A stretch of DNA of 40,347 nucleotides, taken from a virus. Lineage: Duplodnaviria; Caudoviricetes. The stretch covers positions 1 through 40,347 of IMG/VR virus record IMGVR_UViG_3300036766_000337; one strand, 5' to 3'. The notes beneath the pieces were generated by a model. That model searched no databases, was not told the origin of the DNA, and worked only from the letters and a program-made list of their open reading frames with translations. A program made the position numbers and the translations under genes. Shown piece after piece: positions 2,683-40,347 of the stretch (the first letter of the stretch is position 1; each line of letters starts with the position of its first letter).

Positions 2683-2864
2683 CCCCGCTAACCATGACCG
2701 AGTTGCGGCGACAGTTTGAGTCGTCCCATGCGCGACTCGGTTACAAGGATTTTTCTCGTTGGAATGGAGGCGCGACCTATTCTCACGGCGCCCTGCAATT
2801 ACGATGGGCTGGCTACCTAGCCTGCGCGCGGGCTAACGGGCTGCTGAAAAAAGGAAAATCGTGA
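2679..2864 (+). CDS. Small hypothetical protein
   Basis: ATGA-coupled to the DHH gene; 61 aa. Confidence 0.6.
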   Translation: MTPLTMTELRRQFESSHARLGYKDFSRWNGGATYSHGALQLRWAGYLACARANGLLKKGKS

Positions 2865-2959
2865 TGCCCGAAGACGAACGCGAAGCGCCTGACGAAGAAA
2901 CGGTACCCTGGGACTGCGACAATCAAGGTCCACAGGAACTAGGAACAACAGAGGAATAA
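2861..2959 (+). CDS. 32-aa acidic peptide (MMPEDEREAPDEETVPWDCDNQGPQELGTTEE), not in the ORF track
   Basis: GTGA overlap with the upstream stop; aagga RBS; stop lies 2 nt before the hammerhead. Confidence 0.45.
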   Translation: MMPEDEREAPDEETVPWDCDNQGPQELGTTEE

Positions 2960-2961
2960 CC

Positions 2962-3056
2962 GTCCACTGAGGAGCTAAACTAGCGAAACCTGTAGGCAGG
3001 GCTGGGCACCCTAGATGAGTTCTTACCTCCTTCTCATCGCGCCTACAGGTCTGGAC
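2962..3056 (+). ncRNA. Type I hammerhead ribozyme; predicted cleavage after C3051 (GUC)
   Basis: Stem I gtcca/tggac; core CTGAGGA (2967-2973); stem II gcta-aac-tagc; GAAA (2985-2988); stem III cctgtaggc/gcctacagg; GTC triplet. All conserved core nucleotides are present and the element is intergenic. Confidence 0.93.
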
Positions 3057-3079
3057 ACTCAACAAACCAGGAGACCACA

Positions 3080-3139
3080 ATGGCCTTTCATGACGAAGAA
3101 GATGATTGGGATGGCTTAGACGACTCACCAGATTTCTAA
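3080..3139 (+). CDS. 19-aa acidic peptide (MAFHDEEDDWDGLDDSPDF), not in the ORF track
   Basis: AGGAG RBS (3069-3073) 6 nt before ATG; stop is followed immediately by the next RBS. Confidence 0.45.
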   Translation: MAFHDEEDDWDGLDDSPDF

Positions 3140-3151
3140 CAGGAGTTGCAA

Positions 3152-3409
3152 ATGAGTGGAGTTACTGTAACAATCTTCATCAAGAACCCAGAATCTTTGG
3201 TGCCTGCTTGCCAGGTGTATGATATAGAGCTAGTTGGTCGTGGCTTTGGAAAGCTGGCAGAAGAGCTTCTAAATGCAGTTCTGGATGATTTTGAGATACC
3301 AGCCGCCAGGCCGATGATAAAACTGCCTGACACCAAACAAGCTCTGGACACGCTTATGAATCCTGACATTTCCATTAAAGGAGGTGATCCAACTCCAAAA
3401 ACCGATTGA
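3152..3409 (+). CDS. Hypothetical protein
   Basis: AGGAG RBS at 3141-3145 favours ATG 3152 over TTG 3146. Confidence 0.65.
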   Translation: MSGVTVTIFIKNPESLVPACQVYDIELVGRGFGKLAEELLNAVLDDFEIPAARPMIKLPDTKQALDTLMNPDISIKGGDPTPKTD

Positions 3410-3434
3410 CAACTTACCCAAATGGGTGTATTAT
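3406..3434 (+). promoter_or_regulatory. Sigma70-type promoter with an inverted repeat in the spacer
   Basis: TTGACA-17 nt-TATTAT; spacer contains ACCCA-aa-TGGGT. Confidence 0.75.
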
Positions 3435-3486
3435 AGCAATTCACTGGTAATATTGGTGAGAGACTAACCAACACAAGGAGCTACAA

Positions 3487-3834
3487 ATGGCTAAGCAAGA
3501 CGTGGCAAGCAAGTTGAAGGACAGCAAAGATGTTATTAAGGTGCAGTATGACTTTGGTGACAACCTGGCTGAGAGTGTAAAGTTGTTCGGTGAAGAGGTT
3601 GTCCATTCAAGAGCAAAGGCCGCTCTGGTGATCGACCTCCAGGCATTGGTTCGCAGGATGATCAAGGCGGGGAAGAAGTCCGACGAGATCACTGCCGCCG
3701 TTGCAAAGTGGAAACCGGACACTCGCGTGGTCGTTCACAAGACCGCCGCAGAGAAGGTGCAGGAAGGTGTTAAGCAGCTCACGAAGGAAGAGCGGCTGGC
3801 ATTGCTCAAGCAGCTCCAGGCAATCAAGGACTAA
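3487..3834 (+). CDS. Small basic hypothetical protein, possible paralogue of 39642..39986
   Basis: AAGGAG RBS, own promoter, Lys-rich helical sequence. Confidence 0.8.
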   Translation: MAKQDVASKLKDSKDVIKVQYDFGDNLAESVKLFGEEVVHSRAKAALVIDLQALVRRMIKAGKKSDEITAAVAKWKPDTRVVVHKTAAEKVQEGVKQLTKEERLALLKQLQAIKD

Positions 3835-3853
3835 CAGTCGGGTCTGTATTAAG

Positions 3854-3892
3854 TTCACCAGGGGTGTAACAATTTGTTACCCCTCTGGTGAA
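3854..3892. promoter_or_regulatory. Long imperfect hairpin centred on palindrome copy 1 (GTAACAATTTGTTAC, 3866-3880)
   Basis: ttcaccag...gtaacaa-t-ttgttac...ctggtgaa; intergenic. Confidence 0.7.
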
Positions 3893-3909
3893 TTCACCAA
3901 GAAATACAG

Positions 3910-4296
3910 ATGGCTAAGGTCTACATACTGAATAAGGGTGGGCATGACTACTCCGACGCTACACGCTTTGGAGAGCTAGTGTACTGCTCTGAAGGACTTA
4001 TTCCAAAGTTCAGCACTAGCCATATGGTTAGAGTCTTCCAAGGCGCCTTCCAGGATAGTCAGAACATTGACTATATTCTTCTTACCAGTCTCTCAACTAT
4101 GTGTTCCATAGCCTGTGCGATCTTCGCCAAAAAGCATGGAAGACTAAATCTCCTTATCCACCAAGCTGGTGTAGATGGGAAAGATAATCGCTACGTTGAG
4201 AGAATTGTAAAGTTAGGGGATCAAGATGAATCAACCAAAGATAAGAATAGTTCCAACTCCTCAGCCGAGAGAGGAAGAAAAACCGCTAAGGCTTGA
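3910..4296 (+). CDS. Hypothetical alpha/beta protein
   Basis: Well-formed ORF in the operon; VYILNKGGHDY and DYILL strands. Confidence 0.75.
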   Translation: MAKVYILNKGGHDYSDATRFGELVYCSEGLIPKFSTSHMVRVFQGAFQDSQNIDYILLTSLSTMCSIACAIFAKKHGRLNLLIHQAGVDGKDNRYVERIVKLGDQDESTKDKNSSNSSAERGRKTAKA

Positions 4297-8080: not shown

Positions 8081-9384
8081 TGAGAGCTGCCGATGTACTG
8101 AAACAGGTCAAGATATCTGACATCTTGATAGGAGATAGATTTCGTGTGGACCTGGGAAGTATTGAAGACTTAACAGAGTCAGTAAAAGAGAAGGGAATTA
8201 TTCAGCCTATCACACTAGATGCTGGCTTGCATCTGTTAGCTGGAGGTAGGAGAATCGCGGCTGCTGTGAAGGCTGGGCTAACAAAGATACCAGCACTAAT
8301 AAGGGAGGTAGAGGGAGAGATTGATGCCAGGGAAATTGAACTGATTGAGAACTCCTTCCGGAAGGACTTCACCTGGGCTGAACAGGCAAAGCTGGTAGCC
8401 GAGATTGACCGGCTGTGTAGAGCAAAGGATATTGAGTGGTCTGGCAGAAAAACTGCCATGCTTATGAATCGAACTGCTATGGATGTTAGCAGAGCGTTAA
8501 GATTGGCAGACGCCCTGGAGCTGATCCCTGAAATGGAAGATATAAAAACACAAGATCAGGCTATCAAGTTCGTGAAGCAGCTGGAAGAGCGGGCTGTCAC
8601 AACTGAGATGAGAAAGAGACAAGAAAAAGATATCCACAAAAGTGAGCTAACGTTCCTGCAGAGAGCTAAGACAAACTACAACATTGGAGATGCCTTTGTC
8701 GAGATGGCATCTCTACGAACTGACGGCCGGGTAGACTTTATTGAGGTTGATCCTCCCTACGGGATTGATCTGAATGCGCAGAAAAGGACTGATGGCCCTG
8801 ATAAGGTGGATTCATATAAGGAAATTCCCAGCGCTGAATATCCTCAGTTTCTAGAAAAGATCGCAAGGGAAACCTTCCGGGTGGCAGACAGGAATAGCTT
8901 TATGATATTCTGGTTTGGGCCAACGCACTTCACAGCTGTCAAGCATGCACTAGTGTCGGCTGGCTGGGAGGTGGCAGATATCCCAGGTGTGTGGACTAAA
9001 GCTACCGGACAGACCATGCAGCCGAACTACAATCTGGCAAATTGCTATGAGATGTTCTTCTATTGCAGAAAGGGTTTACCAGCCTTGCACAAACCTGGCA
9101 GGTCAAATGTCTTTGCCTTTGCCACTGAATCTCCCAGCCACAAGTATCATCCAACACAGCGACCACTTGATCTGATGATGGAGCTGCTAGATACCTTTGT
9201 TAATCCCTTCGCTATTGTCCTCTGTCCATTCCTCGGATCAGGAGTTACGTTGAGAGCTGCGTATATGCATGGAATGAAAGCCTTCGGATATGACCTGAAT
9301 GGAGAGTACAAGGATAGGTTTCTACTAGCTGTTGAGGAAGATATGCGGCGGCTGGATGCAGACGCTGCTGAGGAGCCACAGTGA
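8080..9384 (+). CDS. ParB-like N-domain + HTH fused to a beta-class N6A/N4C DNA methyltransferase
   Basis: GIIQPI, LLAGGRR, ELIENSFRKD (ParB); WSGRKTA...DVSRAL (HTH); DPPY, HPTQRP, CPFLGSG (MTase). Confidence 0.9.
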   Translation: MRAADVLKQVKISDILIGDRFRVDLGSIEDLTESVKEKGIIQPITLDAGLHLLAGGRRIAAAVKAGLTKIPALIREVEGEIDAREIELIENSFRKDFTWAEQAKLVAEIDRLCRAKDIEWSGRKTAMLMNRTAMDVSRALRLADALELIPEMEDIKTQDQAIKFVKQLEERAVTTEMRKRQEKDIHKSELTFLQRAKTNYNIGDAFVEMASLRTDGRVDFIEVDPPYGIDLNAQKRTDGPDKVDSYKEIPSAEYPQFLEKIARETFRVADRNSFMIFWFGPTHFTAVKHALVSAGWEVADIPGVWTKATGQTMQPNYNLANCYEMFFYCRKGLPALHKPGRSNVFAFATESPSHKYHPTQRPLDLMMELLDTFVNPFAIVLCPFLGSGVTLRAAYMHGMKAFGYDLNGEYKDRFLLAVEEDMRRLDADAAEEPQ

Positions 9385-10394
9385 CCTTTATCTCCTCTGA
9401 GCTTGGGGCAAAGCACATCGTTCCTCCATCTGGGAAGAAGAGCTCCAAAATCTGCCTAATTGGAGAGGCTCCAGGTAGTGAGGAGGCTCGTCAACTCAAA
9501 CCGTTTGTAGGCCCAGCAGGTACCATCCTGGAGAGTTGTATGCACAGTGCAGGCTTCACTCGTAGTGAGGTGTATATGACTAACGTGGTGAAGGTGCAGC
9601 CGCGAGCAAACGATATAACTCCATTCTTCAATAAGAAAAGTTTCACAGAAGCTGGACATGAGTGGGTGGAAATTCTGCATGAGGAGCTGAAGGATGTCGG
9701 CGCGAATATACTTGTTCCCCTCGGAAATACTGCACTGGCAGCTATCACAGACTTCCGATCCATCACAAAATATAGAGGTTACATTCTGCAAGGAGGCGAC
9801 GCAGTTGATGGTAGAAAGGTTCTACCAACTATCCATCCAAGCGCTGCGTTGCGAGGGAACTATATGTACCGCTACTACATTGCCAACGACCTCAAGAAAG
9901 CGAAGGGTGAAAGTGGATTTCCTGAAATACTTAGACCGGCCAGAACTTTGGTATATCAGGGAGATTGTGAGGAGTTCTTAGCCTGGTGTGACTATTTTAC
10001 AAAGGTGGATATTGTCTCCTTCGATATTGAGGTAATCAACTATGAAGTCAGTTGTATATCTTTCTCCGACAGTCCAGAACGTTCTGTGTCCATACCTATC
10101 GCGGGTGGTCAATGGAATCTTGATGACGAAATTAGAATCTGGAAAGGGATTAGTCGTGTACTGGAAAACCCCAGATCAACAAAAGTTGGACAGAATCTCG
10201 TCTTCGATATCCACTTCCTCGCAACTCGCTGTGGAATCCTTGTGCAGGGCCCTATCCACGATACTATGATAGCTCACCACCTGATGTATCCTGATATGCT
10301 GAAAGGGCTAGGCTTTCTGGTGTCGTGTTACTGCGGCAGTCAATCTTATTATAAGGACATGGTGAAGTTTGAAAACATAAAGGAGGAGTCCTAA
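9381..10394 (+). CDS. Family-4-like uracil-DNA glycosylase domain + N-part of 3'-5' exonuclease (N-half of a split DNA polymerase)
   Basis: GEAPG..E, PFVG, TNVVK, HPSA (UDG); FDIE (ExoI); QNLVFD (ExoII). Confidence 0.9.
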   Translation: MTFISSELGAKHIVPPSGKKSSKICLIGEAPGSEEARQLKPFVGPAGTILESCMHSAGFTRSEVYMTNVVKVQPRANDITPFFNKKSFTEAGHEWVEILHEELKDVGANILVPLGNTALAAITDFRSITKYRGYILQGGDAVDGRKVLPTIHPSAALRGNYMYRYYIANDLKKAKGESGFPEILRPARTLVYQGDCEEFLAWCDYFTKVDIVSFDIEVINYEVSCISFSDSPERSVSIPIAGGQWNLDDEIRIWKGISRVLENPRSTKVGQNLVFDIHFLATRCGILVQGPIHDTMIAHHLMYPDMLKGLGFLVSCYCGSQSYYKDMVKFENIKEES

Positions 10395-10395
10395 C

Positions 10396-11904
10396 ATGGA
10401 TGAGAAGATGCTGCAGTATAATGCTCTGGACTCCGCCTGCACGTTGGAAGCACATAACTCTTTCTGGCCTGAGCTTAGCCTTGGCTATACCAAGACATAT
10501 GACTTCACAGTCAGACTGCTGGAACCGCTAATGTTCATGATGACTAGGGGAATAAAGGTTGATCATGCAGAACTTGAAACAACGAAAACAGAGATTAAAA
10601 GTTCCGAACACGAGAAACAACTCGAGCTTGATTCCCTCTGTGGTCGAGCGCTTAATGTTGCTTCTCCGAAAGATTGCCAACGATACTTCTACATTGAGAG
10701 AGGATATCCCCCTTATATCAATAGAAAGACTGGAAGTATTTCAACAGATGATGATGCCTTACAAAGACTCGTGCGGGGGACTGCCAGCCGGCCTCCGTTG
10801 CGAGAGGCGAAGCTCGTACAGGAGATACGCGGACTTAGAAAACTCTTTAGCACTTACCTTGACCTTGAATTTGATCAAGATGATCGTTTGCGATGTAGCT
10901 ATAACCCACGCGGAACTCGTTTTGGACGACTCTCTTCTAGCAAAACTGTCTTTGGAACAGGTACGAACCTTCAAAATCTTCCTCAGGCATTTAAGAAGTT
11001 TGCAGTGCCTGACCTTGGCATGTTCTTCTTCGAAGTTGATAAGCGGCAGGCTGAGTGGGTCGTTGTTGCATACCTGTCAGGCGATGCTAACATGCTTGAC
11101 GTTGTTGAGAAGGGCCGAGACCCTCATACCCACACAGCGAAGCTTATGTTTAGGTGTGAGGAAGAGCTGGTCGTTGAGGATAACAAGCTTGTTGGAGTTG
11201 CTACAGACCCAGATACCATACACGAGCTTAGACAACCCCTTTGGGCTCTCCTTGAGGATTTGAGTTTTGTCCCCAGGTCAATGTCAATGAGACAGTGTGG
11301 GAAGAAGTCTAACCACGGCCTCAACTATGATGAAGGTTATAAAACATTCGCACTGACAAACGAAATGGGAGAGGGAGAGTCAAAGGTTGTAATTGACCTG
11401 TACCATAGAATCTACCCTGGCATTAGACAATGGCATAGACACATACAGCAGCAGCTGGGGAAGGATAGAACGCTAGTTAACTGTTTTGGGAGGAAGTACC
11501 GCTTCATGGACGGCTGGGGAGATGAACTGTTCAAAGCCGCCTATGCGTTCCTCCCGCAGAGTACAATTGCAGATTGTCTCAACCAGGGAATTATTGATAT
11601 ATACTATGACAACGATTCGCTATTTGAGCCGCTCGAGATGCTGGCACAGACGCATGACTCTTGTCTCTTTCAGTATCCCTTGAATCTGCTGGATAGCCTG
11701 CCAGCCGTACTAACCAAAATATATGACTGTGTGTCTCCCGAGATGGAGTATGGCGGCAGGAAATTCAAGGTGCCTACCGACACAAAGATTGGTATGAACT
11801 GGGGCGGGGCAAGCAAGAGCAATCCCAACGGGCTGCAAGCTCTAAATGACATAACAGTACAAGCTGCTAAGGAGATTCTTTGTGTCGGACAGGGTGCTAA
11901 ATGA
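10396..11904 (+). CDS. polA: Family A DNA polymerase (C-half), beginning with ExoIII
   Basis: YNALD (ExoIII), TRFGRLSSS, NLQN, DKRQAE (motif A), RQCGKKSNHGLNY (motif B), THDS (motif C). Confidence 0.93.
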   Translation: MDEKMLQYNALDSACTLEAHNSFWPELSLGYTKTYDFTVRLLEPLMFMMTRGIKVDHAELETTKTEIKSSEHEKQLELDSLCGRALNVASPKDCQRYFYIERGYPPYINRKTGSISTDDDALQRLVRGTASRPPLREAKLVQEIRGLRKLFSTYLDLEFDQDDRLRCSYNPRGTRFGRLSSSKTVFGTGTNLQNLPQAFKKFAVPDLGMFFFEVDKRQAEWVVVAYLSGDANMLDVVEKGRDPHTHTAKLMFRCEEELVVEDNKLVGVATDPDTIHELRQPLWALLEDLSFVPRSMSMRQCGKKSNHGLNYDEGYKTFALTNEMGEGESKVVIDLYHRIYPGIRQWHRHIQQQLGKDRTLVNCFGRKYRFMDGWGDELFKAAYAFLPQSTIADCLNQGIIDIYYDNDSLFEPLEMLAQTHDSCLFQYPLNLLDSLPAVLTKIYDCVSPEMEYGGRKFKVPTDTKIGMNWGGASKSNPNGLQALNDITVQAAKEILCVGQGAK

Positions 11905-39641: not shown

Positions 39642-39986
39642 ATGTCCAAGCAGATCAAAGGCGATCTCGTTATCGCCAGTGTCAAAACTCGCAAAGAGCG
39701 AGGTGGGCAGGCCGTGGAGTGTGTATTCACGATGGACTTCTCGAAGGCCAACCGGGAAGATATTCTCGAACTGGCTTCCCGAGCGGTGGTTATCGGAACT
39801 CAAGCGCTCCTCCGCGAGGAGAAGGACATGACAAAGGGCGCTATGCAAACGGTGGACGTGGCCGAGTTCTGCAGCCGGGAACGTGGCTCATTCGTGGTCA
39901 CGCCTGACAACCTCGCCGCAAAAGCGAAGAAATCGCTAACCCCAGCAGAGCGGGCGACGCTGATCCGGCAACTGCAATCAATGTAA
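39642..39986 (+). CDS. Small hypothetical early protein, possible paralogue of 3487..3834
   Basis: AGGAG RBS; followed by a terminator. Confidence 0.85.
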   Translation: MSKQIKGDLVIASVKTRKERGGQAVECVFTMDFSKANREDILELASRAVVIGTQALLREEKDMTKGAMQTVDVAEFCSRERGSFVVTPDNLAAKAKKSLTPAERATLIRQLQSM

Positions 39987-40128: not shown

Positions 40129-40216
40129 AAAGTTATAATGTTATAAAGTTATAAGATCACAATGTTACAATGTTACAATATCATAATGTTACAATATCAT
40201 AATATTATAATGTCTA
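40129..40216. repeat. AT-rich 8-mer tandem array, about 11 units (consensus AATRTYAY)
   Basis: aaagttat aatgttat aaagttat aagatcac aatgttac aatgttac aatatcat aatgttac aatatcat aatattat aatgtcta. Confidence 0.85.
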
Positions 40217-40252
40217 GCGTTTTGAGACCCCCCCCCTCCCCCTAGCACTCCA

Positions 40253-40300
40253 CCACTTTACCACTATTCATCTATTCCACTTTTTCACTATTCCACTAAG
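40253..40300. repeat. Second 8-mer tandem array, 6 units (consensus CCACTATT)
   Basis: ccacttta ccactatt catctatt ccactttt tcactatt ccactaag. Confidence 0.75.
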
Positions 40301-40309
40301 CTTTCTTCC

Positions 40310-40347
<38 letters not shown>

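Follow-up and report, generated by a model that had tools for sequence, protein, structure and literature searches.

What does a hammerhead ribozyme do between the early genes of a tailed phage, and does it matter that one of its stems displays the anti-Shine-Dalgarno (anti-SD) sequence of the ribosome? The roles of bacterial and phage self-cleaving ribozymes are described as largely unknown (PMC6765202). Active hammerheads have been reported between phage genes, where processing of polycistronic RNA was proposed, and the 5′ end of a halovirus transcript maps to a hammerhead cut of this kind (Perreault 2011, PMC3088659). The locus studied here lies in a stretch of 40,347 nt of phage DNA, which was analysed at its full length and which we call the window. 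An original prediction, made from the letters alone, held that a loop in stem III of the ribozyme pairs with downstream ribosome-binding sites (RBSs) until self-cleavage separates the two, or, as an alternative, that the released 5′ product blocks SDs in trans.

Genomic setting

The window represents a 40-kb tailed-phage genome in which, by PHROGs assignment, the plus strand up to 13,093 encodes a DHH phosphoesterase, an exonuclease, a Sak4-like ATPase, a ParB-methylase, a DNA polymerase and a primase, and genes for the portal, capsid, terminase and tail lie on the minus strand. Among cultured phages, Desulfofustis phage LS06-2018-MD01 comes closest, its exonuclease being 25% identical. The hammerhead is flanked by same-strand accessory genes (115-2959) upstream and recombination-replication genes downstream, and would therefore lie in a long early transcript. 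Its immediate neighbours are as follows.

2864-2959, plus strand: predicted 31-codon acidic ORF; its start overlaps the preceding stop and its own stop is 2 nt ahead of stem I
3052-3082, plus strand: A/C-rich 28-nt leader of the 3′ cleavage product, with the SD AGGAG at 3069-3073 and ATG at 3080
3080-3139, plus strand: predicted 19-codon acidic ORF
3141-3409, plus strand: SD AGGAG at 3141-3145 followed by an 85-aa ORF (3152-3409)
3378-3393, plus strand: 16 nt exactly complementary to the 3′ end of E. coli 16S rRNA, start-less, within the closing codons of the 85-aa ORF; hairpin at 3365-3389
3406-3434, plus strand: near-consensus sigma-70 promoter by consensus match (11/12), with a palindrome in the spacer

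Two very acidic mini-ORFs (2864-2959 and 3080-3139, both plus strand) thus flank the ribozyme. The second ends in an acidic tail with a terminal Phe, which may resemble that of bacterial SSB. For the 85-aa ORF there is a single weak match, with Atlas scores of 0.80, and neither a family nor clear relatives. The candidate promoter would drive the genes from 3487 without the ribozyme, so that the cargo of the ribozyme would be mainly the 19-codon and 85-codon ORFs. The palindrome in the promoter-like spacer (3416-3427) occurs as a single copy in the window and is a possible operator.

Elsewhere in the window, the ORFs at 39642-39986 and 3487-3834 (both plus strand) may be distantly paralogous to each other (32% over 76 aa, E 2e-4). 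The DNA polymerase is encoded by two adjoining plus-strand ORFs, 9381-10394 and 10396-11904, which match successive parts of one PHROG; it is a single gene in Desulfofustis phage LS06-2018-MD01. At 40130-40347 lie short tandem repeats rich in A/T and a final run of A, and no direct terminal repeat was found at the window ends at the lengths tested (20-127 nt).

A type I hammerhead motif with an intact core and a branched stem III

The ribozyme motif comprises the following elements.

2962-3056, plus strand: type I hammerhead motif, with stem I at 2962-2966/3052-3056 (5 bp)
2967-2988, plus strand: catalytic core, made up of CUGAGGA (2967-2973), stem II (2974-2977/2981-2984, 4 bp with a 3-nt loop) and GAAA (2985-2988)
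2989-3049, plus strand: stem III, 9 bp (2989-2997/3041-3049), opening into a three-way junction with hairpins A and B
2998-3012, plus strand: hairpin A
3014-3038, plus strand: hairpin B, with a stem at 3014-3019/3033-3038 and a 13-nt loop at 3020-3032
3020-3032, plus strand: pyrimidine loop of hairpin B, 13 nt; its positions 3025-3032 read ACCUCCUU, the same as the anti-SD tail of 16S rRNA; opening cost 0.0
3049-3051, plus strand: GUC triplet, with the predicted cut between 3051 and 3052; U3050-C3051 lie outside stem III

Hammerhead cleavage follows an NUH triplet. The motif combines such a triplet with CUGANGA, GAAA and three stems of 5, 4 and 9 bp, and its ends lie in stem I, as in type I hammerheads. 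Every coordinate originally given checks, as does the opening of stem III into two extra hairpins; the isolated domain folds as drawn. The letters for the gag/ctc pairing suggested as a possible extension of stem I are there, but all predicted folds lack this pairing.

The motif was the sole match of a type I/II/III descriptor on both strands of the whole window. No motif as good arose in 300 dinucleotide shuffles of the window, and a loose motif arose in 14 of them. For 2960-3058 the hammerhead is the fold of lowest energy (z -1.89, equalled by 7 of 200 shuffles), and the z score of the 61-nt domain formed by stem III is -2.44 (4/200). Pair probabilities within this domain are 0.82-1.0 in isolation and 0.49-0.67 in contexts of 450-590 nt; stem III and both extra hairpins remain the main fold in the longer contexts. 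The Rfam hammerhead models, which had been proposed as a check, gave no match at gathering score; Hammerhead_HH9 (RF02275) reached 15.6 bits (E 1.2), short of its cut-off of 52 bits. This miss says little, since two short phage hammerheads that are clear cases, L090 and L107, escaped Rfam as well. We conclude that 2962-3056 is a real hammerhead motif with an intact core.

Position relative to start codons

A control scan with the core pattern returned 126 viral loci from 12 of the 64 parts of the collection (about 670 estimated overall). The 121 distinct matches comprise 84 type I hammerheads, 28 of type III and 9 that are neither, in a set that is biased to one stem II sequence and contains near-duplicates. 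Within this set, an SD-led start stands no more than 60 nt from the cut in 48 of the 84 type I hammerheads (median 31.5 nt), against a background of 319 of 1000 random positions and 14/84 on the opposite strand. The distance here, from the cut to the SD-led ATG at 3080, is 28 nt. An upstream reading frame ends within 25 nt of the core in 55 of the 84 controls (a count with no background set), and the same holds here. The position of the hammerhead ahead of an RBS is an ordinary phage layout.

Among loci L307-L432, the type I hammerheads with the stem II to which the set is biased form two sharp classes, one with 13-nt spacing between the core halves and mostly a 6-bp stem I, the other with 17-nt spacing and mostly a 5-bp stem I (36 each of the 84 controls); most stand 25-40 nt ahead of an RBS.

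The anti-SD loop

The original prediction that hairpin B exposes an anti-SD sequence holds: 8 nt of the loop match the terminal bases of E. coli 16S rRNA. It pairs with the consensus SD at -14.5 kcal/mol, compared with -7.5 for the best stem III loop among the 84 type I controls. None of these 84 has CCUCC in its stem III loop, and the ribozyme-before-RBS layout therefore needs no anti-SD loop. Stem III inserts of at least 35 nt occur in 10 of the 84 controls (the mis-parsed L333 dropped), and in one of them, L311, the insert is branched. Across the window, 68 of 80,668 13-mers are as anti-SD as the loop, and the sense strand of the early block (13 kb) has only three copies of CCUCCU. The appendage is real and unusual, and it is a singleton.

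Three type I hammerheads (L414, L356 and L382) have stem III inserts of 56-59 nt that end in a pyrimidine loop of 15 nt; these loops and the one in the window have UCUUACC in common. The three hammerheads precede a terminator-like hairpin, not an RBS, and may belong to a free-standing RNA.

Other uses of the loop were considered and rejected. It does not serve as the SD of an antisense gene, the minus strand having no start codon at the proper spacing. Read on the minus strand as an SD-N8-AUCU hairpin motif, it has equal spacing, but related phages are not enriched in such sites (2 of 130). Nor is there a general enrichment of anti-SD sequences upstream of phage hammerheads, with 4/84 real and 18/252 shuffled cases at -12 kcal/mol.

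A long SD sequence without a start codon

The search for partners of the loop turned up the complement of the 16S 3′ end at 3378-3393, a short way ahead of the candidate promoter. In 1.8 Mb of related phage loci (both strands) the longest such complement is at most 12 nt, compared with 16 nt here, a rarity figure that is post hoc, since the site emerged from the search for partners, and scored against the E. coli 16S tail, which may not be that of the host. No ATG, GTG or TTG stands at initiation spacing after 3385. The extended SD of rreB/rreR (PMC5711450) is similar in its length of 16-17 nt of 16S complementarity, mostly within a hairpin; in rreB a GUG start and a small ORF follow, whereas the site at 3378 has neither and lies at the end of another reading frame. 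A frameshifting role for the site was rejected, the shifted frames closing before 3487.

Among 77 distinct phage long-SD sites, 14 have a start codon at the proper spacing and none has a hammerhead beside it, within flanks of 1 kb for 80 of the 100 loci and up to 300 nt for the rest. Forty-two of the 77 form a recurrent hairpin closed by AUCU (for example L160, L173, L192, L196, L199, L202, L210 and L230), a count from a search pattern that fixed the first 16 bases. This hairpin often stands right at a stop codon, with another hairpin behind it; in the 16 loci scanned, Rfam did not match it at gathering score. The site at 3378 lacks the AUCU closure.

Searches for homologues

Homologues were sought by exact patterns or among distant relatives; the closest relatives, P0002 and P0003 (68% and 60% identical to the protein encoded from 3487), lie on contigs outside these searches. 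A blastn search of cultured phages and plasmids returned only chance pieces of 23-31 nt, and the strict core pattern had no match in viral contigs. A pattern combining the core with an anti-SD motif 15-45 nt after GAAA found 74 viral loci (57 distinct) and 42 metagenome loci, in none of which the motif lies convincingly inside stem III. In the viral scan, L090, L107 and L132 are clear hammerheads with the anti-SD motif 3′ of the ribozyme, and L149 is a weak one; L297 and L298, from the metagenome scan, also have the motif 3′ of the ribozyme. The GTDB pattern gave six loci and no hammerheads.

Related phages yielded no hammerheads in 83 loci (900,549 bases; 60 of 80 exonuclease loci reach 1.8 kb upstream). 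Across 39 whole related records there were 12 pattern matches, compared with 24 control matches, and a single hammerhead, of type II. The latter (L520:1459-1515, G038) stands directly ahead of an RBS and start codon. The DNA contigs of one sediment metagenome, which may be the source of the window, showed neither variants nor a second relative over 2869-3940. None of these searches found a phage homologue of the element, from which the original prediction had hoped to read covariation and conservation of the loop.

A literature search, mostly of papers outside subscription, found no natural hammerhead with an anti-SD loop, although Dataset S1 of Perreault could hold branched stems III. The available portions of PMC13725137 and PMC10085705 describe none.

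Proposed function and alternative explanations

Our preferred reading, held with slightly more conviction than doubt, is that the type I hammerhead processes the early message after C3051 and that the anti-SD loop is incidental or a non-specific damper, not a switch dedicated to 3069 and 3141. An early polycistronic RNA would be transcribed through the ribozyme from the upstream same-strand genes. Cleavage after C3051 in vivo would then provide the two small downstream genes with a fresh 28-nt A/C-rich leader and would leave the anti-SD loop on the upstream piece. The downstream product would start with a 5′-OH, the end chemistry of such cleavage (PMC6765202). The translation or stability of the pieces may change as a result. 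Against an incidental loop, the loop is rare and fully exposed in a stable hairpin, and 350 nt further along this strand lies another rare feature related to the 16S tail. Exposed anti-SD 8-mers are also reported to repress expression in vivo from 25 nt upstream or from hundreds of bases downstream, and to be depleted from genes and selected against (Gill et al., PMC12697547); keeping one may therefore mean use.

That use is unlikely to be the switch first proposed, in which the loop of the uncut RNA pairs with AGGAG at 3069 or 3141 and cleavage frees them. The loop is indeed unpaired and complementary to both sites over 5 bp, and the two SDs and their start codons, ATG 3080 and 3152, are confirmed to lie at these coordinates with both SDs 3′ of the cut. 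Anti-SD 8-mers placed 25 nt upstream of a start are reported to reduce mRNA levels in B. subtilis (PMC12697547), and engineered hammerheads free an SD upon cleavage (PMC5367253). However, the duplexes reach only -7.4 kcal/mol at 3069 and -6.9 at 3141, before opening costs of 3.1 and 5.2, which places them mid-rank among 47 start regions (automatically picked, some wrongly), and 8 of the 13 loop bases, including the AC that completes the full anti-SD, have no partner at either site. The loop pairs with its own hammerhead core at -8.3 kcal/mol. Nor does the cut change the predicted accessibility of the initiation region 3065-3085, whose opening cost is 6.4 before and 6.3 after cleavage in a nested-structure model that cannot score a pseudoknot. 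The anti-SD effect is described as falling with fewer complementary bases and as lost when the 8-mer lies between pairing segments or hairpins (PMC12697547), and the linker from stem I to the SD at 3069 is 12 nt (8 if stem I extends), by hammerhead geometry probably a short tether to the far stem III loop. It is also rather unlikely, if a little less so, that the 5′ product, with the loop at its 3′ end, damps strong SDs upstream (553-561 and 1846-1859) or escapes decay as a small RNA that targets host messages through its anti-SD. The two best partners of the loop among the 47 start regions, 567 (-16.2 kcal/mol) and 1861 (-12.9), are indeed found upstream, where they would stay on one piece with the loop, and are accessible, with an opening cost of 2.4-3.4; stem III forms a stable domain, and the icaR 3′ UTR (PMC3868564) and the cuckoo RNAs (PMC4615179) are precedents. 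Yet the sites are 1.2-2.5 kb away, and the target is unspecific: with 46 hand-listed starts, 234 of 1024 random 5′ halves of the loop pair as well with some start region, and 176/1024 match some upstream start region equally, for which reason we rejected a specific target at 567. The element also has a single loop compared with two to four in cuckoo RNAs, and a separate stable RNA is a proposal.

Equally improbable as the original switch is a role for the loop in masking the start-less site at 3378, which could otherwise trap 30S subunits or act as a pause site, until cleavage, or in pairing with it in trans afterwards. The duplex is strong, with 10 bp at -14.6 kcal/mol, or 15 bp at -19.4 if the 5′ arm of the hairpin takes part, and only 3 of 300 shuffled loops equal the pairing of the loop in the 400 nt downstream. 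The length of the site and its rarity speak for this reading too, as does the tight binding of 30S reported for the 17-nt SD of rreB (PMC5711450). Against it, the site is already paired within a local hairpin, costs 8.2 kcal/mol to open and would be cleared by ribosomes on that reading frame, and its predicted pairing probability with the loop is 0.01-0.03 in a model with no pseudoknots. A partner as good occurs in 12 of about 200 random 400-nt segments, 442 of 1024 random 5′ halves equal the loop at this site, and the other long-SD phage sites have no hammerhead in the flanks fetched. A wider version, in which the hammerhead is a timer with a 16S-tail mimic, is less probable still: before the cut the loop would close off the long SD at 3378 and also, though weakly, the RBSs closer by; the cut would yield two anti-translation RNAs early in infection, the downstream one gripping 30S through 16 bp and the upstream one competing with ribosomes for strong SDs through its loop. 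Very improbable, finally, is a slow or decayed ribozyme in an element that now serves no purpose. The 3-nt loop II leaves 11 nt between the core halves, which none of the 84 type I controls shares; no tertiary contact between loops I and II was found, nor a pseudoknot by eye, although the HH9 alignment has a similar 5′ flank. Together these suggest that cutting may be slow. With the leader present, stem I is predicted to be less secure than stem III, and a rival hairpin (3051-3054/3067-3070), which takes in the point of cleavage and the first bases of the SD, is favoured over the active fold by a predicted 1.3-2.3 kcal/mol; of 18 consensus hammerheads tested elsewhere, four were inactive (PMC3088659). 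On the other side, the core and three stems are perfect, the leader geometry is typical, and the 11-nt stem II class (87 loci, 62 distinct matches) contains 2 type I and 16 type III phage hammerheads, the latter with a 4-bp stem II and 3-nt loop. On the preferred reading, the rival hairpin over 3067-3070, itself weak, means that ribosome loading at 3069 may favour cutting, the energy difference being small. These considerations return us to the preferred reading, a ribozyme that would process the early message with a loop that is incidental or a non-specific damper.

Comparison with known systems

With the type I hammerheads of phages and prophages (PMC3088659; Rfam clan CL00010) the element has in common its core, its topology and its place between a stop codon and an RBS in an early operon. 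It differs from them in its 61-nt branched stem III, its anti-SD loop and its 3-nt loop II, and it scores below every Rfam gathering threshold.

Engineered switches of the Wieland and Hartig type reportedly hold the SD in an extended stem I. The SD-releasing aptazymes of Wieland and Hartig and the thermozyme (PMC5367253) are alike in placing a hammerhead before an SD and an extra module on stem III, where hairpin III has been swapped. In those described there the module controls cleavage; here it is an anti-SD hairpin, and the SD lies outside stem I.

The cuckoo/RSs0680 small RNAs (PMC4615179) likewise present an anti-SD motif in a hairpin loop. As described, they are free-standing and have two to four adjacent hairpins, each with CCUCCUCCC, whereas the present element has one loop, of another sequence, inside a ribozyme; it lacks the set of hairpins that defines them and has no Rfam match. 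Pairing of the icaR 3′ UTR with its SD (PMC3868564) and long-range anti-SD repression (PMC12697547) are similar in that an anti-SD blocks a distant SD on the same RNA. The accounts available of these systems feature near-perfect partners and no ribozyme, in contrast to the 5 bp formed at 3069 and 3141.

If the loop matters, the element would be a natural hammerhead with a built-in module for translation control, of a kind hitherto seen in engineered switches only. Should the loop have no effect, the locus still illustrates a layout common in phages, with stop codon, ribozyme, 25-40-nt A/C-rich leader and SD in this order, and this layout is itself a testable hypothesis for what such ribozymes do.
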